This document shows positions 10,261-52,097 of a stretch of 64,000 bases of DNA, one piece after another. The notes beneath the pieces were generated by a model that worked only from the letters and a program-made list of their open reading frames with translations, made no database searches and was not told the DNA's origin. Numbering within the stretch: the first letter of the stretch is position 1; every line of letters begins with the position of its first letter. Source of the DNA: an uncultured Desulfobulbaceae bacterium (GTDB lineage Bacteria > Desulfobacterota > Desulfobulbia > Desulfobulbales > Desulfobulbaceae); assembly GCA_947259225.1 (NCBI GenBank), contig CAMYLK010000009.1, positions 17,599-81,598 of the forward strand. The letters run 5' to 3'. Both the position numbers and the translations under genes were made by a program.

Positions 10261-10581
10261 GTTTTCAACTCAAACCACCAGCACAGAAAAGACTCTACCA
10301 ATCACAGCACAGCATTTATTTCTTCTTTTTCTCGAAGAGCAGTTTCTCCCCATCGAAATTGACATTTCTCAGTCAAAATTCATATAATTTAAACAGGGTA
10401 TAACTTTTATTCCATAACGGTTTATATGAATGGATGAAATGATTTTTTTATTTGTTTCATCCTTTTATACAAGTACGTATCATGTATGGGGAAGTAAGGA
10501 TGGGTTAAGCAGCCGAAGCTTATTTTTGGGTCAGTCTAAATTGAAGATGTTTTGACAGTAAAACTTTTCAATGAGGTGGAT

Positions 10582-12000
10582 ATGAATTTATTTCTTCTCC
10601 AGAAAAATGATAAAGGTCCTGGTTCTGTTTTTGCCCGAATTTTTCAATTTGTATTTTGCGGTGCCTTTATTTCTTTAATTATGTCATGCAATGCTCCAGT
10701 TACATCAGGTACATCTGGTATGATGAATGGTGCACGGTCAACTGCCTCTTCCCCTGTAACTGCTCAGGGTGATTATCAGGCTTCGTCTACCTGTAAGAAC
10801 TGCCATGCTCATATCTTTGAACAGTTTCTTGAATCAATGCATGCAAATTCATATAAGAACCCGGTGTTCAATGCTGAATTTTACAAGATTCTGTTACCGC
10901 GCTTTGAAGATGGTGAAGACCTCTCAGGTGAAGTGAGGGCTTGTATAGCATGCCATTCACCTGTAACCTATAGCCAGAACAGTGGAAATATTTCTTCGGT
11001 TAAGGGTGTTGGGCGTGATTTGTCAGGTGTTGAATGTGATCTTTGCCATACAATAAGAGGGTATGATGGTTCAAAACCGGAAGGTGGAAATTATATATCA
11101 AGTCCCAGTGAACAGAAATTAGGACCCTTTCAATATGAGAGCAGTCATCACCGTGCCTACTCAGAATTGCAGACAAAAAGTGAAATTTGTGCAATATGCC
11201 ATAACAGAACTAACCGTTTCGGCCTTGAAATAATATCAACCTTCTCGGAATGGAAGAAGAGTCAGTACTCCAAAAGGGGCATCGAGTGCCAGAGCTGTCA
11301 TATGAATATACAGGGATTCCTTACAGCCGGACAACCTGTATATGAGTCCGGCGAAGCAGCGCAGGCAACCTTGATCAAACCCAAAAACAGATCCAAGATT
11401 TACACACATCGTTTTCCAGGAGCACATTCAGAGTCTCAGGTGAACGGAGCTATTCAGTTGGACATACAGGTCAATGAGCCTGCAGTTGAAGCCGGCAAAG
11501 AGATGATGATTTATGTGAATGTGGACAACTCCAGGTCAGGTCATAAACTTCCGACGGGGAGCGCTGAACTCCGGCTGCTGTACCTTGATCTTGTCGCGGA
11601 AGTCGCGGGGGAAACAATTCCTCTTGCGGCTAATTCACTTGATAAGGAAATGTTTGACGTTTCTGGTAAGGGAAAATTTGATTCAATTGTTCTGAAAAAT
11701 GATATACCCGAAGGCAGGCGAGTTTACCGTGCCATCTGTCTAGATAATGAAGGACAACAGACAGTTTTTTCATTTGATGCCAAGGAAATTTCCTTTGATA
11801 ACCGTTTGCAGGCAAGTGAAGTCAGGAAGGAATTCTTTACATTTCAGGTGCCGGATGATGTTGGTTCGGAATTTTATCTTGTCGCCACTTTAAATTATCT
11901 CCGCTATCCCAGCTCCTTTGCCTATGAACTGGGCGTTCCCAAGGCAAAGACCGTTGAATTGGCAAGTGTTCGAAAAAAAGTGGTGTTAAACAGGCACTAA
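10582..12000 (+). CDS. Membrane-anchored pentahaem c-type cytochrome with non-haem C-terminal domain
   Basis: Five CxxCH motifs (CKNCH, CIACH, CDLCH, CAICH, CQSCH) and an N-terminal hydrophobic anchor. ATG at 10582 is preceded by GAGGTG. The ORF-track start at 10552 is a TTG without an RBS. Confidence 0.8.
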   Translation: MNLFLLQKNDKGPGSVFARIFQFVFCGAFISLIMSCNAPVTSGTSGMMNGARSTASSPVTAQGDYQASSTCKNCHAHIFEQFLESMHANSYKNPVFNAEFYKILLPRFEDGEDLSGEVRACIACHSPVTYSQNSGNISSVKGVGRDLSGVECDLCHTIRGYDGSKPEGGNYISSPSEQKLGPFQYESSHHRAYSELQTKSEICAICHNRTNRFGLEIISTFSEWKKSQYSKRGIECQSCHMNIQGFLTAGQPVYESGEAAQATLIKPKNRSKIYTHRFPGAHSESQVNGAIQLDIQVNEPAVEAGKEMMIYVNVDNSRSGHKLPTGSAELRLLYLDLVAEVAGETIPLAANSLDKEMFDVSGKGKFDSIVLKNDIPEGRRVYRAICLDNEGQQTVFSFDAKEISFDNRLQASEVRKEFFTFQVPDDVGSEFYLVATLNYLRYPSSFAYELGVPKAKTVELASVRKKVVLNRH

Positions 12001-12354
12001 TAAGAGACGGCTGGTCCAGTGCCTGGCAAATTATATTTTCGTTATTTTATTAATTAGGGTCCCCTCTATAATTTAAGGACGAGCAGTCTGGTTTCAGTTG
12101 GTGCCCTTATTCGTTTGTCCTATGTTTATCTGACTTACCCGTCTTCCTGCCCTGATATTTTCTTCACACAGTATTTACTGGGCCATTAATTGTTGCGAAA
12201 CACATCCTGTTTTCTTGCACATGACTTTATTGGTGCGATCCATGTCAAACGGCCCAATTAATCTTTTGACCTGCAGTTAGTAATGATTACTCTTCTAGGA
12301 AAGGGCAACGGTAATATGTTTGTTTGCTATATACTTGGAGTGTGCTCGGGAGGT

Positions 12355-13419
12355 ATGAAAATGAGTATGTTGAGCCTTATTTTATCAGTTTCTGCGGTTC
12401 TTTTTTTTGGTGTCAGTCCGGTATACGCTACCAGAACAAGGACAGCCGTTTTTGCAGGAGGCTGTTTCTGGTGCATGGAACCTCCTTTTGAAGAGATCGA
12501 TGGAGTCATAGACGTCAAGGCAGGCTATACAGGTGGTGATGTGGAGAATCCTACCTATGAGCAGGTCACCGGAGGAGCGACCGGTCATTATGAAGCAGTT
12601 CAGGTTGTGTATGATCCTGATGTTGTGGACTATGACGAACTCCTGAATGTATTCTGGCGCCAGATTGATCCCACTGATGACGGAGGGCAATTTGCAGACC
12701 GTGGATCACAGTATTTCACGGCTATTTTTTATCTGGACGATGAACAGAAAGAAAAAGCTGAGGAATCAAAGAAACAGCTTGATGCTTCAGGAGTATTTGA
12801 TAAACCGGTAATGACTGCTATCCTGCCGGCGGTTCCATTCTATCCAGCCGAAGAATATCATCAGGATTATGCCCGGAAAAATGTTTTACCTTATTCAAGG
12901 TATAAAACAGGTTCCGGACGTACCGGGTTTCTTGAGAGAACATGGAAAAATAATGAAGATGTGAATTTATCCACCAGCACCTTTCACAAGCCATCCGCTG
13001 ATGAACTGAAACAAATACTTTCTCCCATTCAGTATAAAGTAACCCAGAAGGAAGGTACGGAACCACCCTTTAATAACGAATACTGGAATAACAAAGAAGC
13101 GGGAATATATGTTGATATCGTTTCCGGTGAACCTCTATTTTCTTCTACTGACAAGTTTGATTCAGGAACTGGATGGCCCAGTTTTATCAGACCTGTGACT
13201 GAAAACAATGTTCGTGAAAAGAAAGACCGTAAATTGTTTTCTGTGAGGACAGAGGTGAGAAGCCGTACTGGAGACTCACACCTGGGGCATGTGTTTGAGG
13301 ACGGCCCGAATCCGACCGGTTTGCGGTACTGCATAAATTCCGCATCCCTCCGTTTTATCCCGGTTGATAAGCTTGAGGAGGAAGGCTTTGGCCAATTTCT
13401 TGATCTGTTTGAAAAGTGA
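12355..13419 (+). CDS. msrAB: Exported bifunctional peptide-methionine sulfoxide reductase MsrA-MsrB
   Basis: MsrA motif GGCFWCME. MsrB motifs [13 protein letters not shown] and RYCINS. The N-terminal signal/anchor is [28 protein letters not shown] 12355 is preceded by GGGAGG. Confidence 0.88.
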
Positions 13420-42617: not shown

Positions 42618-45600
42618 TCAGGGTATTTGAAAGTTGGAACTGAATGGTGAGGTGTTATTGGATGGGTCAAGGCGTATGGATGTCACCCACTGTCCAATAG
42701 CAACACCGGAACCGCTGACATCAACATCCACAGAACTCCCGGATGCAGTGGTAGAACCGATAAAGATCTTGCCCTCACCGTACGCAGTTCCTGTTCCGTC
42801 GTAATCAGAGATATACACTTCAACAGTATCTCCAGAAACCACATTGTCAACTGTAATCCATGAGGTGTCGGCTGCTGTAATGGTCGGCCGGATAATACTA
42901 TTGTTTGCAGTGCCATCCAGGTAGATACCGTCGTCACTCAGTGCACCTTCAGTCCCATTATTATAGAAGGAATTACGAATTATCCTGACTTCATTAGCTC
43001 CATCTGCCACATAGACACCATTGGCGGTCATATTGGCAAACACATTACCGGCCCCATCGGGATCATCATCTGTAGAGCCTCCAACCAGAGTATAGGACCC
43101 CCTGAATCCAGTGAGATAGACCCCGTATTTTCCAGGAAAAATCTCATCCAGTTCCGGATTGGTGCCGAAGAAATTGCCATATATCTTGGTAGGGCTGGCA
43201 TTATTATGGTAAACACTGATTGCCGAACCTTGGTTTCCAGTGCCGCTTGCTTTAACACTAAAGACATTGCTGTCATTCAATGTGTTGTCATCGGTCGCCA
43301 CATTTGGCCCACCGATGGTGATGTTGCCGGCCGAGGTACTGTTGATCCGGATGGCCCAGTAGTTCTGCTGGACCCTGTCATGCCATGTTGTTCCGTCAAA
43401 ATAATAACCGAATATGTTACCAGTGATGGAAAGTGGACCGGTGGTGCTGCCCACATAGATGCCTGTACCATTACCGGATATAATATTATCCTTGATAACA
43501 CCATTGGAGCCGGAAAGGCCGATTCCGTCATAACTGAAACCATTGCTCATGGCTGCCCCATCAGGCAACAGCCCGATATAGTTGTTCTGGATAGTCACAT
43601 TGGATGAACTTGGAACGTACATCCCGTCTCGGATGTTTCCGCTGATATAATTCCTGTCAAAAACATCCTCATCACCGCCAGCCCGGCAGTTGGCACCATT
43701 GACTTTTACACCGTAGTAATTCGAACCGCCTGTTTTGGTGTAGCCCGAGTTGCTGTCCGACCAGAAGCCGACATGGTTACCTTCAAGGACACAGTTATTG
43801 GCACTACTCATATCGATGCCGTAAAAGTAAAAGTTTGTGACCTGCAGTCCCCTGACCGTAACATTGTCACCAGTAACATTAAGGCCGTCAAAGCCATAGG
43901 TGCCGTGAATACGGATTTCCGGTCCTTTTGGATTGGTATCTCCATGCAACGCAGCCTGGGAGCCGCCGTCAATGGTGACCCCGTCAGCTGCTACGGTCGG
44001 CAGAATAGTGGCCACGTTGATCAATGCTACCCCGTTGGTCAGTGACCCTGGAGCAATATCGAACCAGATCGAATCATCACCGCCAGCTATTTCCAGGTCA
44101 GTGATAGCCTGTCGCAGAGAACCTCCACCGGAATCGTTCGTATTGGTCACGATATAGGCAGCAGGCGGTTTGATCAGAAAATCCGCATCCGAGCTGTCCG
44201 AAGTCTGGTTGCCTGCCTTATCCGTCACAGTCAGTTGCACACGGGTCCTGTAGCTGGCTGGTTTGGGGATCGGGTTCCAATCGTAGCTGCCGTCGTTGGC
44301 CTCGTTCGCTGCAATAGAACCAGGAAAAGTAGAACCGGAGTCAACCGAGTAATCCAGCATTATTGGACTGGCCTTCAGGTTGCCTTCAGTGTCGGAAATA
44401 TCACCGTTGGCCCAGGTGATCTGCCTGGTGGTGTCACCTTCCTGCCAGACCTCAGCACCGTTCGGTGAAAGGAGGTCATCCGCTGCAACATTGGGCGCAC
44501 CACGGTCCAGCTCAATTGTATAATTTATGGTGCCTGATTCACCAGCCTCGTTTCTCACCTTTATGTAGACAGTTTTTTCTGCATCGCTGTCGGACAGTGT
44601 ATACGTTGTGGAATCATTGTAGGGTATCCAGCCGGTGCTGTTCTGGCTGAATCCGGAGTCCTCGGCCAGGATCATTTCGTCCGGATAAGCTTGTGCTGTG
44701 ATGGCAACGTCAACAGTCCGATTATTTGTGAATCCTGTCTCTGCTGCAGCAGGGTCGGCGCTGTTGTCAGTCAACGTAAAGTCCCATAGGGACGGGGTAA
44801 ATGCCTGGATAGTAAAATCAGCGTTTGATTCATCAGAATTCTGATTCCCGGCCCGGTCTGTAGCCGTGATCTTAACTCGCACGGTGCTGCTTACAATCAA
44901 GGGTACCGATACCCAGGTGTAAGTCCCATCGTTGCCTTCACTGGAGGAAATGCTGAAGGGATAGCTGGTTCCGCTGTCGGTCGAGTAAACCAGATTTATG
45001 GGGAAGGGGCTCTTCAGATTGGTATCACTGATACCGCTCCAGGTGATGAAGCGGGTGGTGCCCTGGTTCCATATTTCGGAGCCGTTAGGTGAGGTAAGCG
45101 CAGAGGTGCCGACTGTGGGGATGGTTGTGTCAAGGGTGATGGTATCATTGCGCGGCAGGGATTCACCAAGAGCGTTGCGTGTCTTGCAAAAGATAGTATA
45201 GGAACCGTCAGTACCCGATATTGGGTAGGTAAAAGAAGAGGCATAGGGCCCCCAGCCATCACCACCGTTGTCAGGCTGAAGGTTTATGGAAAAAGCACCG
45301 TCCTGGGCACAGATCATCTCTGTTGGATCGGCATACCCGTCTAATGTAACGGTGATATTATTATTATTGGTGTAATTGGTTTCTGCAGGTAACGGATCGC
45401 TGCTGTTGTTGTCCTCTATTGCAATACTGGCCAGGCCAGGCGGGGCAATATAGTAATACTTACCCCCGCCGCCACCACCGTGACAATTTAAACAATTAAA
45501 GGCACTGTCCGGGCCATCGGCACCGTAATCACCAGAAGCATCATTACTATGGACAATATCTAGGCTAGTCCGGGTCATTTTTATAGTTGGCCCCCCACTT

Positions 45601-47429
45601 ATCCGAGAAGCACCATGAACATTATGACAGGTAATACACGTCGTTTCGGAATCATAACTATCAATACCATCAGAGTTCCAGGTATTGGTAAAGCCTATGT
45701 TGTGTATATCAACAAGATGGTCCCAGTGAGCATTTGCAGGAGGGGCCCCATAGCCATCTTCGCTCAAGTTACGAAACCCTGTCGAGATAGTCCCCGCATT
45801 TTTGTAGGGGTTGGTCGAGCAATTATATAACCCGCTTGCCTTCGTATCACTCAGCAGGTTATTTTCGCTGTGACATTCAAAACAAAGCCTGTAATCATTG
45901 CTGTCGTAGCCGCATTGGTCGCCTGTTTTGGGTATAGCCATGGGGGGCTGCCCGCCAACTGATTTAAGACGAAATGCTGCCTGATAATTATTGGAGGCTG
46001 CAGCATACGACCTGGCGTTATCAAAATTATGGTCCAAGGTGACCCCGTGACATTCACCACATTCTTTAGCTGCACCGGCTCGGCCGTGACCGGATGCATA
46101 GTAACCCCAGGTGGAATTGTTTCCTGCCACATCAGGTGCCTGGCGACCATTAATTACCGAATTGCCCGAGTCATGACAGGTGACACACCATTTCTCTTTT
46201 CCTGCAGTGAGTGATATGCCGGTATAGACACCGTTAACCCAGTTGCTCTTGGCGCCGACAACAGCATCATCAACGCCGTCAAAGCCCCCTCCGGGGCTGT
46301 GACAGTCATTACAGATGTCTGTCTGGGCCAGGGTAAGTTCAGCGTTCGGGTCAGCCTTGGACCGAAAAAACGGGAAGTTGGTTGTGTTATGACAGTCTTC
46401 ACAGTCAAGAATCGGACGGGGGCCTATAAGTTCATCGTCGCTTTCCGTGTGAATGGAATGCGTCTCATAAGTCCCTGCTCCTCCTGTCAATCCACCGTAT
46501 CCGGCATCATGACCATGACATTCACCGCATCCTGTTCCAGAGCCTCCTCCATGGGCAAAGCCACCTTTGTGGCTGTGGCAGTCAATACAGTCCGTTTCTG
46601 ATGCTCCTCCCACGTTTGTATGGTATTGGTCACCGCCTGACCCGTCATTCCTGAAATGCGTTGTCTCAGTATGACAAACCTCACAAATACCATCATAAGT
46701 CGTGTCACCATCGACAAAAGAGTTCGTACCGGTACTGCTGAATAACTTGACGGTCATGATGTCAGTTTTGTCCTGGGGAACGAGCGGATCTGTGATAGCA
46801 GCAAGATCAATGGAACTCTTGACCAGCTTACCGTAACTGATGGCAAAGGTATCACCAGCACCAACGATCCCAAGATCCATGGGTATATGCACAGTCAATG
46901 TATCTGTAGTGTTGCTTGTAATCCTGTAGCTGACCATTGGCTGGGATGTGTCCGGGAAAACAACCAGCCCAGCAAACTCATCCGGTGTCCAGCCAGCGCC
47001 ACTTTTGGAGATCGTGGTCAGGGTGACGCCGGTAGATACATTCTCGTAGAGATAGCTCGCGGAAGCGAATGTCTGGGCCTGCTCATGAAAATGCGGATCA
47101 TGGCAGACTATGCATTCAACCGTCCAGCTGCCGTAGTCGTCATCAATCTGGGAACTGGAATGGGTCATAACCTGGACGGCATCGAGGCCGTTATGACAAC
47201 TCCAGCAGAGTGAATTGAACTGGGTATCGTCGTCAACCGGATCACGATGAGTCCATGGTGGCAGAAGTTGTGGTTCGGTACCATAAACGTAATGACACGA
47301 ATCACATTCGATGTTGTTCTGAAAAAAATGGGGATAGCCATCAGCAATGGCCGAAGTTGTAAAAAGACAAAAAATAATTACTGCTGCAGGGATTGACATA
47401 AACCCCGCAACTGGTTGTGCGGCCCTCAT
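42618..47429 (-). CDS. Secreted 13-haem c-type cytochrome fused to tandem Ig-like modules and a C-terminal parallel beta-helix region
   Basis: 1603 aa, GGAGGAG RBS, signal peptide. 13 CxxCH motifs, all within aa ~40-660. Gly-rich inter-haem loops (CIDCHSHKGGFAHGGGSGTGCGECHG). Two ~210-aa repeated modules, then PbH1-type repeats (NNYIGL..., DNIISGNGTGIYV..., GNIFGYY...). Confidence 0.85.
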   Translation of the reverse strand: MRAAQPVAGFMSIPAAVIIFCLFTTSAIADGYPHFFQNNIECDSCHYVYGTEPQLLPPWTHRDPVDDDTQFNSLCWSCHNGLDAVQVMTHSSSQIDDDYGSWTVECIVCHDPHFHEQAQTFASASYLYENVSTGVTLTTISKSGAGWTPDEFAGLVVFPDTSQPMVSYRITSNTTDTLTVHIPMDLGIVGAGDTFAISYGKLVKSSIDLAAITDPLVPQDKTDIMTVKLFSSTGTNSFVDGDTTYDGICEVCHTETTHFRNDGSGGDQYHTNVGGASETDCIDCHSHKGGFAHGGGSGTGCGECHGHDAGYGGLTGGAGTYETHSIHTESDDELIGPRPILDCEDCHNTTNFPFFRSKADPNAELTLAQTDICNDCHSPGGGFDGVDDAVVGAKSNWVNGVYTGISLTAGKEKWCVTCHDSGNSVINGRQAPDVAGNNSTWGYYASGHGRAGAAKECGECHGVTLDHNFDNARSYAAASNNYQAAFRLKSVGGQPPMAIPKTGDQCGYDSNDYRLCFECHSENNLLSDTKASGLYNCSTNPYKNAGTISTGFRNLSEDGYGAPPANAHWDHLVDIHNIGFTNTWNSDGIDSYDSETTCITCHNVHGASRISGGPTIKMTRTSLDIVHSNDASGDYGADGPDSAFNCLNCHGGGGGGKYYYIAPPGLASIAIEDNNSSDPLPAETNYTNNNNITVTLDGYADPTEMICAQDGAFSINLQPDNGGDGWGPYASSFTYPISGTDGSYTIFCKTRNALGESLPRNDTITLDTTIPTVGTSALTSPNGSEIWNQGTTRFITWSGISDTNLKSPFPINLVYSTDSGTSYPFSISSSEGNDGTYTWVSVPLIVSSTVRVKITATDRAGNQNSDESNADFTIQAFTPSLWDFTLTDNSADPAAAETGFTNNRTVDVAITAQAYPDEMILAEDSGFSQNSTGWIPYNDSTTYTLSDSDAEKTVYIKVRNEAGESGTINYTIELDRGAPNVAADDLLSPNGAEVWQEGDTTRQITWANGDISDTEGNLKASPIMLDYSVDSGSTFPGSIAANEANDGSYDWNPIPKPASYRTRVQLTVTDKAGNQTSDSSDADFLIKPPAAYIVTNTNDSGGGSLRQAITDLEIAGGDDSIWFDIAPGSLTNGVALINVATILPTVAADGVTIDGGSQAALHGDTNPKGPEIRIHGTYGFDGLNVTGDNVTVRGLQVTNFYFYGIDMSSANNCVLEGNHVGFWSDSNSGYTKTGGSNYYGVKVNGANCRAGGDEDVFDRNYISGNIRDGMYVPSSSNVTIQNNYIGLLPDGAAMSNGFSYDGIGLSGSNGVIKDNIISGNGTGIYVGSTTGPLSITGNIFGYYFDGTTWHDRVQQNYWAIRINSTSAGNITIGGPNVATDDNTLNDSNVFSVKASGTGNQGSAISVYHNNASPTKIYGNFFGTNPELDEIFPGKYGVYLTGFRGSYTLVGGSTDDDPDGAGNVFANMTANGVYVADGANEVRIIRNSFYNNGTEGALSDDGIYLDGTANNSIIRPTITAADTSWITVDNVVSGDTVEVYISDYDGTGTAYGEGKIFIGSTTASGSSVDVDVSGSGVAIGQWVTSIRLDPSNNTSPFSSNFQIP
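44165..45440 (-). repeat. Tandem in-frame duplication of a ~210-aa two-domain module inside the giant cytochrome gene
   Basis: Module A has LTSPNGSEIWNQGTTRFITW...DRAGNQNSDESNADFTI. Module B has LLSPNGAEVWQEGDTTRQITW...DKAGNQTSDSSDADFLI. The boundary lies near 44790. Confidence 0.75.
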
Positions 47430-47704: not shown

Positions 47705-47735
47705 ATGGTCGGCAGCCTTGTTGACTGCCGACCAT
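47705..47735 (-). terminator. Hairpin terminator after the rhodanese gene
   Basis: Perfect 11-bp inverted repeat ATGGTCGGCAG-N9-CTGCCGACCAT, 12 nt past the stop. The U-tract is weak. Confidence 0.55.
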
Positions 47736-47746
47736 AAATGTAGATG

Positions 47747-49060
47747 TTATTCTTCTATTTCACATTCTTTTCCTTCGCATTCAACATCAGCGACCAGAAA
47801 CGAAGCCTTATATCCGTCTTTCTTCAGTTGCTTGTAGGCCATTTCAGCCCTGGCACCAGTAGAACAGTGGATATAGATTTCTTTGTCTTGGGGGAGCTCA
47901 CTTACTCTTTTCGGCAGTTCATCCAGAGGAATGGTAACGGCTGCGGGATACTTTCCTGCTGCAATTTCATCGTTTGTCCGGACATCAAGAATGACAGCTT
48001 TTGATGACCCGGCTGCCGCTTTTTCAAAATCAGCAGCACTAACTTCGCCCTTGCCAAGTTTTCTTTTCCAGTTAATTTCGGTCACAACCGGCCCTGACTC
48101 AAAATTGCCGTCTGATTTCAGCCAGCGATTGAGATCTCCATAAACCAGTGATGCTTTTTTAAAACCTTCCTTGCGGAGTTTTTCGAGAGCCTTGAGCGCC
48201 TGTTTTTCATCGTCGCTGTATAGGACGACTGGAGCTTTTGTCGGGATATCTTCGAGCTTGTCACCCAGAGTATCATAAGGGATTGTAACTGATCTTGGGA
48301 TACGGGATTTTTCCGATTTTTCAACTGATCGCAGGTCAATAAGAACAATATTTCCCTTGCTGACAAAACCAGTGGATGCATAAGTCGGGTTCCCGTCTTT
48401 GATCCAGGCAGGTTCTCCCGCAAGCATGACCTTTACGTTTTTGTATCCTGCTTTTTTCGCCAGACCGGCGGATTTCGGGCTCATGCCTCAGGTGTAGCCC
48501 CCGCAGTAAAATACCAACAACTTGTCCTTGTCAGCAGGTAGGAGTTCAGGTAACTTGGTTTTCATCTGCTCGACAGTGATGGATATCGCTCCGGGAAGAT
48601 GAGATTGAGCGTAGCGCTTTGTCGGTCGGGAGTCGATGATCACCATTGCGGCGTTCTTGTCAATAAGCTTTTTTACCTCTTTCGGCTTGATTTCAACAAT
48701 ACCCTCAGGCAGTTTGGCAAGCTTGGGTTTAACAACGGTTGCAACTTTATCACTGCCCCGCATTTCCCATGTAATTATTGTTGCCTCTCCTTTTCGGGCA
48801 TGATCCATTCCCTTGGTCTTGCCGTCAAACTTGACCATCATGGTTTTGGCTTTATCACCCTTGCCAACCTCAATTGAAATGGTTTTTGCTTTTTTTGATT
48901 TGCCGACAATTTTACCTTTGTAAACGTTAGCAGCCTGCTTTTCTGCAGCAGGATTCATAGCCGTGTCAGGGGGAGCTGTTTTGTTCTGCGCGCATCCCCA
49001 TGTTAACACCGTTAACATGATGCATAACGGTATAAACTTTGTCAATTTTTGCCTCATCAT
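47747..49060 (-). CDS. Triple-rhodanese lipoprotein with predicted selenocysteine in the first active-site loop
   Basis: The 190-aa and 245-aa track ORFs share one frame and are separated only by TGA (48490-48488). Joined reading: ..LLVFYCGGYT-U-GMSPKSAGLAKKAGY... U-GMSPKS aligns with the rhodanese C-xxxx-[RK]-S loop. Lipobox LTWGC. Domain 2 is inactive (LYSDDE). Domain 3 has IHCSTGARAE. Confidence 0.7.
48458..48470 (-). promoter_or_regulatory. SECIS-like hairpin downstream of the in-frame UGA
   Basis: mRNA CGCC-GGUCU-GGCG. The GGUCU apical loop starts 25 nt from the U of UGA. The E. coli fdhF SECIS carries GCA-GGUCU-GCA with the loop one codon closer. Confidence 0.45.
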
Positions 49061-49432
49061 TTTACCTCCGAAAAATTAAGTTTTTCTTTCCCCCTCATAA
49101 CTATCTATAAAAACAAAAAAACAGTTTGATATGATATGCCCTCAATGTGGCATTACGGTACAATGTTTCCATTTGGAATTATTGAAAATATTTTTTAAAA
49201 AAAACTCAAAATACAAAAAAAATACAAATAATAACAATTAATTATACGTTTCATATTACACTTTTGTTATTTGCGAAGTCAAGGTGATTTGCCGTTATAA
49301 AAAGAAAATTTCAGTGAGGGGCGAGTCTCACCTTTTATTCCTGTTCATTCGGTATGTTATCTGATAGAATTTATAGTATCGCTAAAGCAACAGCAGTTGC
49401 ACATTCTTTTCTTTTATTTAAGGAGGTATGTT

Positions 49433-49651
49433 ATGGCAGGGAGCGTTTACAAGCTTATCGAACTCGTAGGAACCAGCAAGAAATCCTGGGAGGATGCAGC
49501 CAAGAATGCTGTTGAAACAGCAGGAAAGTCATTAAAAGACCTGCGGATTGCCGAAGTAACAAAGCTTGATATGCAGATAAATAAGGGAAAAGTGGTAGCC
49601 TATCGCGCCCGGATCAGTGTTTCGTTTAAGTATTTAATGAAAAAGAAATAG
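49433..49651 (+). CDS. Dodecin-family flavin-binding protein
   Basis: 72 aa. MAGSVYKLIELVGTSKKSWEDAAKNAVETAGKSLKDLRIAEV. AGGAGG RBS 6 nt upstream of ATG 49433. Confidence 0.8.
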   Translation: MAGSVYKLIELVGTSKKSWEDAAKNAVETAGKSLKDLRIAEVTKLDMQINKGKVVAYRARISVSFKYLMKKK

Positions 49652-49760: not shown

Positions 49761-50882
49761 CTAATGTTCAAGGGCCTGGAATTTTTTCATGAATTTGCGG
49801 TCTATATAATCCTTTAACAGGAATGCCGGTCTCCCGCCGAAGAGAAAACATTTTTTACGAAAAATTCCGGTTCCGTCTCCAAGGTTGAATATGAGCAGGT
49901 AGTCACCCCCGGGCTTGAATTCCATGAGTTCTGTTCCGTCCAGAGAGGCCATTATGTTATGGAGGATGATCGGATTTTCGCGTACAGCATACACGCCCAC
50001 CTTATCAAGAGGTTTTTCTTTAAAGTGGATACAGTCACCTCCACCGAATATATTCGGGTAATCAGTGCTCTGGAGGTATTTGTTGACCATAAGCCCTCCA
50101 TCAGGCCCAACAGCAAGTCCTGACTCTTTGAAAACAGGGGAGGGCTGAACCCCAACAGCTACAAAGATGATGTCTGCTGGAAATGTCTGGCAGGATTCCA
50201 GCTCAATGATACCGTGTTGGATAGTTGAAACATTGCTCTGCTCGAGAATTTCGATGTTGCGGCTGACAAGGGATTGAATAGCCCTGGCACGGACCCGCTG
50301 CGGAAAGCCAGCCATAATGGTGGATCGGGAAAATATCTTGATGTCAGCAGGATGAATATTTGACTTGTTGGTCAACCCCCATACATTACCTGCAATTTCC
50401 ACTGCTGACGGCCCGCCACCTATAACACAGACTTTCACAACGTTATCAGCAGACAGTTGCAGGATTTTTTTCCTGGCTTCCGCCAGACGTTCTATGGGCT
50501 TAACAGGAAAAATGTTTTCAGAGTTGTCTGTAATTATTGATTCCGGAACATAGCTCCCGATGTTGAAAGAGATCGTATCGTAAGGGACTGTTTCCCCAGA
50601 TTCAAGATGTATGATGCAGGCATCAGGGTCAACCTTCACAACTTTGCCCAGGATGAAAGTGCCGCCATGCTTGTCGACAACGTGCCGGGTCGAAAAGCGT
50701 ATCTCTTCCGGGGAGTACATATTGCCGAGCATTCCCGGGCCCATACCAGAATAATAGTGGTATGGTGAAGGCTGGATAACAGTGACCTGATACCCTTTTT
50801 CAACAAACTCATTAAGGTGGGCCAGGGCCATCATGTGAGCATGCCCCCCGCCTGCGAGCACGAGCTGCTTTGTCATATCCAC
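49761..50882 (-). CDS. FAD-dependent pyridine nucleotide-disulfide oxidoreductase (type found N-terminally fused to SelD; TIGR03169-like)
   Basis: 373 aa. LVLAGGGHAH dinucleotide motif, YYSGMGPGML block, second Rossmann VIGGGPSAVE, GGGDC near the C-terminus. Confidence 0.65.
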   Translation of the reverse strand: MDMTKQLVLAGGGHAHMMALAHLNEFVEKGYQVTVIQPSPYHYYSGMGPGMLGNMYSPEEIRFSTRHVVDKHGGTFILGKVVKVDPDACIIHLESGETVPYDTISFNIGSYVPESIITDNSENIFPVKPIERLAEARKKILQLSADNVVKVCVIGGGPSAVEIAGNVWGLTNKSNIHPADIKIFSRSTIMAGFPQRVRARAIQSLVSRNIEILEQSNVSTIQHGIIELESCQTFPADIIFVAVGVQPSPVFKESGLAVGPDGGLMVNKYLQSTDYPNIFGGGDCIHFKEKPLDKVGVYAVRENPIILHNIMASLDGTELMEFKPGGDYLLIFNLGDGTGIFRKKCFLFGGRPAFLLKDYIDRKFMKKFQALEH

Positions 50883-50894
50883 CTCTGATGTGGT

Positions 50895-51725
50895 TTACAG
50901 GTGCTGGAAAAGTTCACCCAGCTGTTTCAGGTGAGACTGTTCCTCCCGGGCTATCTGGTCAAGTACCTCGCGGCTCTCTTTGTTGGAGTTGTTTTCCGCA
51001 GCCCTGCTGTAGAGGTCAAAGGCCTGGGCTTCTATTGACATGGCCATGCCGATGACGTCCTCTTCTGAGTTTACATCAGCACCGAATTTTTGAATAAATT
51101 CTTCTGTGTTGATTCCACCCTCCATCACTGGTGAGACTATATCCCTGTCAAATTTTTCAACATCAAGGTCGTCTCCGGTTATTCTTTTATATTCTTCAAA
51201 GAGCCGGTTCTGGTGAAGTATCTCTATGGCAAAGAGCTGGTGAAAAAGTTCCTGTGACTTGGCATTGTGTATTCTGGGAATCATCTTTTTGTAAAATTCA
51301 CGCAGCCCCTTTTCCAGTGAATAAGCGACGATGAGCACTTCTTTCGGAGTTTCATTGCCGTCAAACAGATCAAGGCCCTGATCTTCAGGGCCGACAGCAT
51401 AATTACCTGTCCAAGCCTTTAATCCGCCGCTGAGGTTATAGACTCTGCTAAAATTTTTTCCGGCCAGCATTTGGGCCGCAACTCTGCTTCGTCCACCAAT
51501 AGCGCAGTATACTAACGCAGGTTTTTCCGGATCAATTTCAGATAACCGATCCTTGAGTTCAGGGAGAGGGATAAGTTTGGAACCGGGGATATGCCCGGCC
51601 TCGTATTCCTTGGGCTGTCGTACATCAAGCAGGGTGTATGAATCCGGTACGTTTTCATCAATGAATTTTTTTGCCTGAACGGCGTCCATTGATTCAACAG
51701 GTGTGAAAAATTGTTTCCAGCGCAT
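50895..51725 (-). CDS. Rhodanese domain fused to a rubrerythrin/ferritin-like diiron four-helix-bundle domain
   Basis: 276 aa. Rhodanese active loop VYCAIGGRSRVAA. The C-terminal half carries the E / ExxH / E / ExxH ligand pattern (SLEKG, IEILH, SIEAQ, EEQSH). Confidence 0.7.
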   Translation of the reverse strand: MRWKQFFTPVESMDAVQAKKFIDENVPDSYTLLDVRQPKEYEAGHIPGSKLIPLPELKDRLSEIDPEKPALVYCAIGGRSRVAAQMLAGKNFSRVYNLSGGLKAWTGNYAVGPEDQGLDLFDGNETPKEVLIVAYSLEKGLREFYKKMIPRIHNAKSQELFHQLFAIEILHQNRLFEEYKRITGDDLDVEKFDRDIVSPVMEGGINTEEFIQKFGADVNSEEDVIGMAMSIEAQAFDLYSRAAENNSNKESREVLDQIAREEQSHLKQLGELFQHL

Positions 51726-51740: not shown

Positions 51741-52097
51741 TTATTTTTTTTGTTGTTGGAGCCACATATAAATATCGGCAGCATCCTGGTCTGACACCTG
51801 CTTCGATTCAAATGTTGGCATAATGGCTGAATTAGGATTTCTCAGTTGTTTGAGAAAACGAGTGTAACTCAGAGAAGTCCCGGCAATGACAGGCGCTTTG
51901 CCGCCAGTTCCTTTTTCGCCATGGCAGCCGTTGCACCGGTTCATCCTGAACCATCTTTCACCATTTGCGGCATTACCTTCAGGCACCTTGCCGCAAGCAG
52001 ACAACATAAGAAGAAATACAGCAGACAATGCACATAATAAAGCTCTGATCTTCAGTTTCACAATACAATTCCTGCAATTGTATAAGACAAAGGTCAA
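51741..52097 (-). CDS. Monohaem class I c-type cytochrome (lipoprotein/exported)
   Basis: 118 aa. One CNGCH motif, a distal Met candidate (AIMPTF), and an LMLSAC lipobox-like signal. The start codon is uncertain. Confidence 0.75.
   Translation of the reverse strand: MTFVLYNCRNCIVKLKIRALLCALSAVFLLMLSACGKVPEGNAANGERWFRMNRCNGCHGEKGTGGKAPVIAGTSLSYTRFLKQLRNPNSAIMPTFESKQVSDQDAADIYMWLQQQKK

Follow-up and report, generated by a model that had tools for sequence, protein, structure and literature searches.

Rhodanese selenoproteins have been known since the mid-2000s, when they were reported as 'rhodanese-related sulfurtransferase' (PMC1088965, PMC1976440). A 2026 review recognizes five forms: UxxS; UxxG; CxU (NF041203); a further UxxG; and UxxxxU, found in TsoB (NF045694) (PMC13188914). 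Here, we describe a gene on the minus strand of a 64-kb stretch of DNA from an uncultured Desulfobulbaceae bacterium (contig CAMYLK010000009.1, positions 17,599 to 81,598; hereafter the window), where two adjacent open reading frames (ORFs) very probably form one triple-rhodanese gene that is read through a selenocysteine (Sec, U) codon. As a preliminary description of this DNA had pointed out, the rhodanese selenoprotein class is already known; the window protein is an unannotated addition to it. It shares with the catalogued forms the Rhodanese domain (PF00581), Sec in the active-site loop, the existence of Cys homologues, and a host among anaerobic Deltaproteobacteria-type lineages. The catalogued forms carry Sec at the catalytic position (UxxS/UxxG), as CxU, or as UxxxxU, whereas the window protein keeps the canonical Cys and carries Sec at +5. 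Its architecture, with a signal peptide, an OB-fold and three rhodanese domains, is also unlike theirs.

Sulfur-respiring bacteria use exported rhodaneses as carriers of sulfane sulfur or polysulfide. The window protein resembles three exported proteins considered to be such carriers: Wolinella Sud; Escherichia coli YnjE, with three rhodanese domains; and, by description alone, the exported pRho of cable bacteria and other members of the same order, the Desulfobulbales (PMC13047784). Sec has not been described in any of the three. In cable bacteria, Desulfurivibrio and Desulfolithobacter, periplasmic rhodaneses are both conserved and expressed at high levels (PMC13047784), and we found no literature tying the rhodaneses of cable bacteria or Desulfobulbaceae to Sec. 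Within the Desulfobulbales, 12 selenoproteins, including SelD, are listed for Desulfotalea psychrophila (PMC1794560). A periplasmic precedent is MccSep, a Sec-containing polysulfide reductase in which Sec is essential for S-S cleavage and which was annotated as two genes (PMC13510729).

Results

One reading frame across an in-frame UGA codon

Read directly, the minus strand at the junction of the two ORFs is ...TAC TGC GGG GGC TAC ACC TGA GGC ATG AGC CCG AAA TCC GCC GGT CTG GCG.... The upstream ORF (48488..49060, 190 aa) terminates at the TGA at 48490..48488, and the ATG of the downstream ORF (47747..48484, 245 aa) lies two codons past this TGA in the same frame. Joined through the TGA, the ORFs give 437 codons, with the TGA as codon 191. 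The joined protein matches the Pfam Rhodanese family (PF00581) in three stretches, at 137.6 bits against a gathering threshold of 22.2. Because the best of these stretches (aa 126-221) spans codon 191, the split between the ORFs falls within a rhodanese domain.

A GGAGG stands 4 nt ahead of the ATG of the first ORF. Promoter-like sites occur only upstream of this ORF, and the sole GAGG upstream of the internal ATG overlaps the TGA and stands 1 nt from the ATG, so that the downstream start has no properly spaced ribosome-binding site. The preliminary description had proposed that the ORFs are one gene and that the downstream ORF begins in mid-rhodanese without a ribosome-binding site, and both proposals are borne out. 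The stretch 47747..49060 (-) is very likely one monocistronic gene read through a Sec codon.

Homologues identify the residue that is expected at this codon. A protein search of ~5.8 billion sequences returned 812 homologues at E <=1e-10, and two classes could be read from the best 120 of the 812: full-length proteins of ~430-450 aa that share no more than 65% identity with the query; and 17 fragments of ~245 aa, 72-100% identical, all beginning MS[PT]K[SA]AGLA.... All of the full-length proteins (>90) have the motif FYCGGxTC-G[ML]S, which puts Cys in the TGA column. An alignment of 60 sequences shows no variation at C186, at S194 or at C191, the residue of the TGA column.

The DNA of relatives was compared at the same position. 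TGA stands at exactly the codon-191 column in 14 distinct genes, including the window gene, with 55-84% protein identity to the window protein; the Sec-type loci are L001, L002 (= L010), L003, L005-L009 and L013-L017. Neither TAA nor TAG occupies the column in any of the 14 stop-bearing orthologues, and TGC is found there in L004/L011, L018, L019, L020 and L021. Homologues consistently split into two genes at this site had been named beforehand as an outcome that would speak against Sec; the aligned column instead holds either the Sec codon (14 genes) or Cys, the latter in the continuous full-length proteins.

Both halves of the gene are under purifying selection of equal strength. In a codon alignment of 13 TGA genes (L003 was found afterwards), the ratio of nonsynonymous to synonymous differences (pN/pS) amounts to 0.32 for the half upstream of the TGA and 0.28 for the half downstream, with pS ~0.75. 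No further stops or frameshifts were seen. A genetic code in which TGA is a sense codon was considered and ruled out: of the 24 genes in the window that could be named with confidence, 7 end in TGA as a normal stop, and none of their 12,858 codons is an in-frame TGA. A scan of the 64-kb window for other gene pairs separated by an in-frame TGA found none that was convincing.

A conserved hairpin downstream of the UGA

The bacterial Sec insertion sequence (bSECIS) is defined as a stem-loop directly 3' of the UGA with a G-rich apical loop (PMC9312934). Consistent with this definition, the window gene carries a hairpin 21 nt past the UGA in which four synonymous sites are frozen and which is gone in distant Cys forms. 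The hairpin is identical in 14 of 14 TGA forms, including its 4 synonymous third positions. Among the 13 aligned TGA genes, 119 columns hold an invariant residue with a degenerate codon; a single codon is used in only five of them, namely the TGA and GCC GGT CTG GCG, and each of the remaining 114 uses at least two. L003, the 14th TGA gene, also retains the hairpin. Distant Cys forms with the same A-G-L-A peptide serve as a control: L020 spells it GCC GGC CTC GCG and L021 GCC GGC TTG GCA, and these other codons destroy the stem. At the level of sequence, the comparative data are decisive for a nucleotide-level constraint on the hairpin. Together with the 14 TGA orthologues and their Cys homologues, this constraint supports the earlier reading of the TGA as Sec, and UGA-191 is almost certainly decoded as such on these comparative grounds.

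The element resembles the SECIS of E. coli fdhF in its apical GGUCU, its GGT-CTG codons and its place just 3' of the UGA within the ORF. The preliminary description had put the two at about the same distance from the UGA, which holds to within one codon: GGUCU begins at nt 25 from the U of the UGA in the window and at nt 22 in fdhF, as checked in >5,400 genomes. The elements differ in that the window stem comprises 4 G-C pairs, without a bulged U and without a conserved lower stem. Calculated stabilities are -6.4 kcal/mol for the window hairpin and -4.2 kcal/mol for the fdhF 17-mer.

As a separate observation, in several Sec forms the CC of Ser-Pro or Ser-Thr codons could pair with the GG of a downstream Gly codon, giving a variable lower stem. 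The possible stem would pair 48473..48487 (-) with 48443..48451 (-) in the window and is strong in L002 (GGUAUGUCC...GGGAUAUACC); RNAalifold does not support it as a consensus.

Two Cys-type genes, L018 (736) and L019 (2363), have TGC at the Sec column and retain the identical GCC GGT CTG GCG hairpin. In a neighbour-joining tree without support values, they branch within the Sec clade of the window or at its base, which fits a recent replacement of Sec by Cys that left a fossil SECIS behind. Elsewhere in the same tree, Sec forms of a second group are intermingled with Cys forms, and this suggests that Sec/Cys exchange has been repeated in the family.

Active-site loop and domain architecture

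The residue at codon 191 is not the canonical catalytic position. In the preliminary description, U-G-M-S-P-K-S-A had been aligned with the canonical rhodanese loop C-R-S-G-N-R-S-A, which made Sec the catalytic residue; this alignment does not hold, since the canonical Cys is C186 and Sec stands at +5 from it. When the solved rhodanese 6mxv (YCGGGFRS) is aligned, its catalytic Cys falls on C186 (FYC), and the window loop is two residues longer. Bacillus halodurans BH2092 (3nhv/3o3w), with the segment YCWGPACNGATK, aligns without gaps to the window loop and therefore has a C-x4-C loop of equal length. The Cys orthologue nearest to the window protein, P0001 (65% identical), was modelled with AlphaFold (AF2); the model, with a mean pLDDT of 89, is continuous across the codon-191 site and shows strand LLVFY, loop C-G-G-Y-T-C-G, then a helix. 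The catalytic Cys of a rhodanese is the first loop residue after the central beta-strand; C186 and C399 occupy this place, and domain 2 has Ser/Asp there. Because the alignments to solved rhodaneses and the model put the catalytic Cys at C186, Sec191 is not the canonical nucleophile. In the model, this position lies five residues past the catalytic Cys (+5) and caps the active-site helix at its N-terminus, where Sec191 would form a Cys-x4-Sec dyad with Cys186.

The N-terminus of the protein carries a signal of the family pattern L-x-x-G|C, and a disordered tether comes after it; in a few members the signal is of the SPI type and lacks the Cys. The window protein is exported by its N-terminal signal and, from this sequence pattern, probably lipid-anchored at Cys23. 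What had been described as an unknown N-terminal domain of ~90 aa does not stand as one unit; it resolves into a disordered tether of ~20 aa, with low pLDDT in the P0001 model, and a five-stranded OB-fold barrel of ~68 aa (pLDDT 96-98 over aa 46-112). The barrel (aa ~45-112) has no Pfam family match. Foldseek returns CusF (2vb2; E 7e-4, TM(target) 0.76), SilF (0.69) and then generic OB folds, all with marginal E-values (~1e-3). The metal ligands of CusF are conserved Met/His(/Trp) residues. The window-family barrel resembles CusF and SilF as a small OB-fold barrel but, unlike them, has no conserved Met or His; its residues conserved at >=90% are G49, S55, I61, D79, T82, G84 and A107.

The three rhodanese domains correspond to the exported arrangement proposed earlier (Sec-bearing, inactive, Cys-active), with the correction to the position of Sec given above. 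Domain 2 is inactive because Ser or Asp stands at the Cys-equivalent position after strand PVVLY281, whose Y281 is invariant. Domain 3 has C399 in >=90% of homologues; its G402, R404 and A405 never vary in the 60-sequence alignment. The C-terminal C428-x4-C433 is probably a structural disulfide staple in the periplasm. A whole-protein fold search returned only rhodaneses, including three-domain periplasmic YnjE; the TM score was only ~0.2, so the packing of the domains is different.

Relation to curated selenoprotein families

Three known proteins come close to the window loop. The rhodanese_LYCAU (seleno)protein NF041203 is the best-scoring selenoprotein-type model (70.8 bits) and likewise pairs the canonical Cys with a nearby Sec; it differs in its cutoff of 115 bits, which the window protein does not reach, in the position of its Sec (+2, CxU, vs +5) and in being a small single-domain protein. 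TsoB (NF045694) shares the x4 spacing of two chalcogen residues, and aa 124-229 of the window protein match its rhodanese region. This match covers the rhodanese part only (55.3 bits vs a cutoff of 805), and the window protein has no DsbD-like membrane domain and one Sec rather than two. Since it scores under both curated cutoffs, the window protein lies outside NF041203 and NF045694. The fusion of TsoB to DsbD suggests, by analogy, that such a dyad may be redox-active outside the cytoplasm. BH2092 has the same loop length, with Cys at +5 when compared with YCGGYT(U/C)GMSPK, but it is a single-domain, cytoplasmic structural-genomics protein without Sec that matches at E ~2e-7 only; no literature on it was found. 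Compared by motif string alone, the window U-G-M-S also fits the first form of the review (UxxS; WP_010941598.1, Geobacter), and no Geobacter protein is among the named best homologue matches.

Extent of the family and its annotation

With aa 113-190 as query, 1.84 billion cluster representatives were searched exhaustively, giving 1,536 matches, and 147 new representatives were examined from the best 150. Of these, 37 end exactly at ...FYCGGxT, most with signal peptides; with such termini, these upstream fragments are probable Sec forms. A further 70 carry an internal CGGxxCxLS, and 40 are canonical CxxGxR rhodaneses. In their source records, the fragments are called 'rhodanese-like domain-containing protein' or 'hypothetical protein' and come from Desulfobulbaceae, Desulfobulbus and Desulfobacterales metagenome-assembled genomes; no record containing a 'U' is among the best matches. 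Sec forms are systematically split in public annotation, the window gene into 190-aa and 245-aa proteins. The family is widespread in Desulfobulbales and, as far as established, neither curated nor annotated as an exported C-x4-U family with an OB-fold and three rhodanese domains. In L021, 906-2234 and 2327-3673 are tandem triple-rhodanese paralogues (442 and 448 aa) of the distant Cys type, beside a Nitro_FeMo-Co-type small protein.

Features and genomic context

Coordinates are collected in Table 1.

Table 1. Features of the triple-rhodanese gene and its surroundings in the window
Feature	Coordinates	Strand	Remarks
Whole triple-rhodanese gene, putative selenoprotein	47747..49060	-	437 aa, ORFs joined via UGA-191; TAA stop 47749..47747
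GGAGG ribosome-binding site	49065..49069	-	4 nt ahead of ATG at 49060; read directly
Sigma-70-like promoter candidates	49241..49282	-	Gene upstream region; consensus matches only
Signal peptide L-T-W-G|C	48992..49060	-	Cys23 codon 48994..48992; probable lipoprotein signal
N-terminal five-stranded beta-barrel, OB-fold	48725..48928	-	aa ~45-112, ~68 aa; CusF/SilF-like at fold level
Rhodanese domain 1	48383..48703	-	aa ~120-226; enlarged loop C186-G-G-Y-T-U191-G-M-S
Cys186 TGC codon	48503..48505	-	Canonical rhodanese catalytic Cys, first loop residue after central strand LLVFY; invariant in 60 homologues
UGA codon 191, predicted Sec	48488..48490	-	TGA in 14 orthologues, TGC in other homologues
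Putative bSECIS apical hairpin C-G-C-C [GGUCU] G-G-C-G	48458..48470	-	21 nt after UGA, within coding sequence; encodes (x)-A-G-L-A
Rhodanese domain 2	48095..48364	-	aa ~233-322; catalytically inactive
Rhodanese domain 3	47786..48049	-	aa ~338-425; standard six-residue loop C399-S-T-G-A-R-A; Cys codon 47866..47864
C-terminal C428-x4-C433	47762..47779	-	On beta-hairpin; C433 invariant; C-D-C variant in one subclade
11-bp inverted repeat ATGGTCGGCAG...CTGCCGACCAT	47705..47735	-	Perfect, 12 nt past TAA; terminator-like stem, atypical in being without a U tract; read directly
Dodecin	49433..49651	+	Beside triple-rhodanese gene
Rhodanese-rubrerythrin fusion	50895..51725	-	276 aa, without signal peptide; fusion not covered by any NCBIfam family
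Monohaem cytochrome c	51741..52097	-	Upstream of triple-rhodanese gene

Four neighbours are kept in close relatives: the dodecin, a Pyr_redox_2 flavoprotein, the rhodanese-rubrerythrin fusion and the monohaem cytochrome c. The fusion, cytochrome and dodecin also stand beside the triple-rhodanese gene in L006 and L015. The flavoprotein (49761..50882 (-), 373 aa) gives a full-length match (2-365/365) to TIGR03169 'Nterm_to_SelD'; at 250 bits it falls under the cutoff of 310 and is therefore a relative, not a member, of that family. It also matches TIGR04369, an oxidoreductase/SelD-related fusion, and fusions of TIGR03169-type oxidoreductases to SelD have been described (PMC4561486). The flavoprotein is possibly the selenium link of the locus, or possibly a generic NDH-2/SQR-like relative. 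Its synteny with the triple-rhodanese gene recurs in L006, L013 and L019 and is lost in the distant Cys forms L020 and L021.

Three other genes of the window may be mentioned. Directly downstream, 42618..47429 (-) encodes an unusual giant multihaem protein of 1603 aa. It is secreted, contains numerous CxxCH haem motifs (cytochrome c7/c3-type matches) and ends in a right-handed beta-helix/NosD-like region with repeated Ig-like modules. A 482-aa ORF at 10552..12000 (+) has weak NCBIfam matches, far under threshold, to two '(seleno)protein' models (multihaem cytochrome ExtKL, 41.6 vs 250 bits; UshA-like PCGU, 26.5 vs 275), probably through shared haem motifs alone. In some anaerobes MsrA is a selenoprotein; the window gene at 12283..13419 (+), which encodes a fusion of the methionine sulfoxide reductases MsrA and MsrB extended by ~50 aa at its N-terminus, is an ordinary ORF without interruption.

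Discussion

Taken in combination, a single gene, Sec insertion at codon 191, a SECIS hairpin and an exported sulfur-handling protein form an explanation that is highly likely. Several observations weigh against parts of it. No tRNA-Sec, SelA, SelB or SelD was found within the 64-kb window, in which the only tRNA is tRNA-Pro and in which the search for Sec-machinery proteins used NCBIfam annotation of the 20 larger ORFs. The hairpin is present in the minimum-free-energy fold of the window sequence, and the single-sequence fold is no better than those of shuffles (z = -0.58). No covariation is scorable, because the stem, only 4 bp long, never varies; RNAalifold, too, recovers just the invariant 4-bp hairpin, with neither a consensus lower stem nor covariation. 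Rfam gave no match, either for the window at gathering thresholds or for 48380..48540 at a permissive E-value, a null result that is uninformative because no matching bacterial SECIS model was reported. Since the Cys forms L018 and L019 carry the identical hairpin, the hairpin by itself does not prove decoding. At the N-terminus, LTWG|C departs from the lipobox [LVI][ASTVI][GAS]C in its atypical Trp at -2.

Gene callers and public records treat the locus as two genes, and in all TGA forms an ATG lies two codons past the stop. On this account, translation would terminate at the TGA and the downstream ORF would be translated by coupling, yielding a 190-aa lipoprotein and a 245-aa cytoplasmic protein. 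This is extremely unlikely: the cut would fall inside rhodanese domain 1, between the central strand and loop and the helix; the downstream product of an exported protein would have no signal peptide; in >90 homologues the protein runs uninterrupted through the site, which holds Cys; across 14 lineages the stop is TGA throughout and never TAA or TAG; four hairpin codons are frozen at synonymous sites; and the downstream ATG has no properly spaced ribosome-binding site. A TGC-to-TGA nonsense change in a decaying gene, or a sequencing error, would need a single base, and the close relatives L018 and L019 are indeed Cys forms. Yet the same TGA recurs in 14 independently assembled, divergent genes that show no additional stops or frameshifts, and a single recent clone is excluded by pS ~0.75. 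With pN/pS ~0.3 in both halves and synonymous sites near saturation, the equal constraint excludes a pseudogene or an error, for which the probability is negligible. The absence of Sec machinery from the window and the shortness of the hairpin would suit an outcome other than Sec: recoding of the UGA to Trp, Cys or Arg by structure-stimulated read-through, or a regulatory termination or attenuation in organisms without Sec machinery. We consider this highly unlikely, as all non-TGA homologues of the 60-sequence alignment have in this column an invariant Cys that is functionally paired, the classic Sec/Cys signature; the loop and spacing of the hairpin match the SelB-binding element of fdhF; and both Sec decoding in Desulfobulbales and rhodanese selenoproteins with x4 spacing are on record.

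A further possibility concerns function and is compatible with Sec decoding: the protein could handle selenium, as a periplasmic selenite- or Se0-binding protein or perselenide carrier that supplies selenium together with the adjacent flavoprotein. The full-length TIGR03169 match of that neighbour and the recurrence of the synteny in three relatives point in this direction, and MccSep, too, reduces selenite (PMC13510729). Set against this, the TIGR03169 score is under the curated cutoff, the flavoprotein has no signal peptide whereas the rhodanese is exported, and the synteny is lost in the distant Cys forms. The family is, moreover, abundant in sulfur-cycling Desulfobulbales, in which periplasmic rhodaneses track sulfur metabolism. 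A role in selenium handling therefore has only a small chance of being correct.

For the favoured selenoprotein, the following sequence of events may be proposed. SelB with Sec-tRNA(Sec) would bind the hairpin 21 nt past the UGA, leading to insertion of Sec at codon 191. The product would be exported, probably lipid-anchored, and would consist of the tether, the OB-fold barrel, the three rhodanese domains and the C-terminal CX4C hairpin. In the periplasm, the highly nucleophilic Sec191 selenolate may attack S-S bonds of polysulfide, S0 or thiosulfate; alternatively, Sec191 may resolve a Cys186 persulfide through an Se-S intermediate. Sulfane sulfur could then move on to Cys399 or to enzymes that act as partners in dissimilatory sulfur metabolism, making the protein a periplasmic sulfur carrier of the Sud/pRho type with a redox-active S/Se pair. 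By analogy with these systems, its most likely role is the transfer of sulfane sulfur in the periplasm, with the Cys/Sec dyad attacking or resolving S-S bonds. The persulfide/perselenide carrier function suggested in the preliminary description is plausible. A stronger proposal is that the dominant exported rhodanese of Desulfobulbales is a selenoenzyme whose dyad forms a selenenylsulfide and breaks S-S bonds by reduction, acting as a cofactor-free periplasmic polysulfide/thiosulfate reductase-transferase and not as a passive persulfide carrier; we give this a fairly low chance of being right.

The immediate consequence concerns annotation. Because public records split the gene in two, sulfur genomics of Desulfobulbales miscounts: comparative studies miscount and mislocalize a conserved periplasmic rhodanese and miss its probable selenium dependence. 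The family also offers a natural series for Sec/Cys exchange, comprising Sec forms, Cys forms with a fossil SECIS, and Cys forms without it. The Cys-x4-Sec dyad, which parallels MccSep, provides a testable handle on the periplasmic activation of sulfane sulfur and polysulfide in sulfur-disproportionating and sulfide-oxidizing Desulfobulbales. About one quarter of the clade's clusters appear to be Sec forms split in two by annotation. Were the selenoenzyme proposal to hold, periplasmic sulfur cycling would be selenium-dependent in Desulfobulbales, among them relatives of cable bacteria and of sulfur disproportionators.

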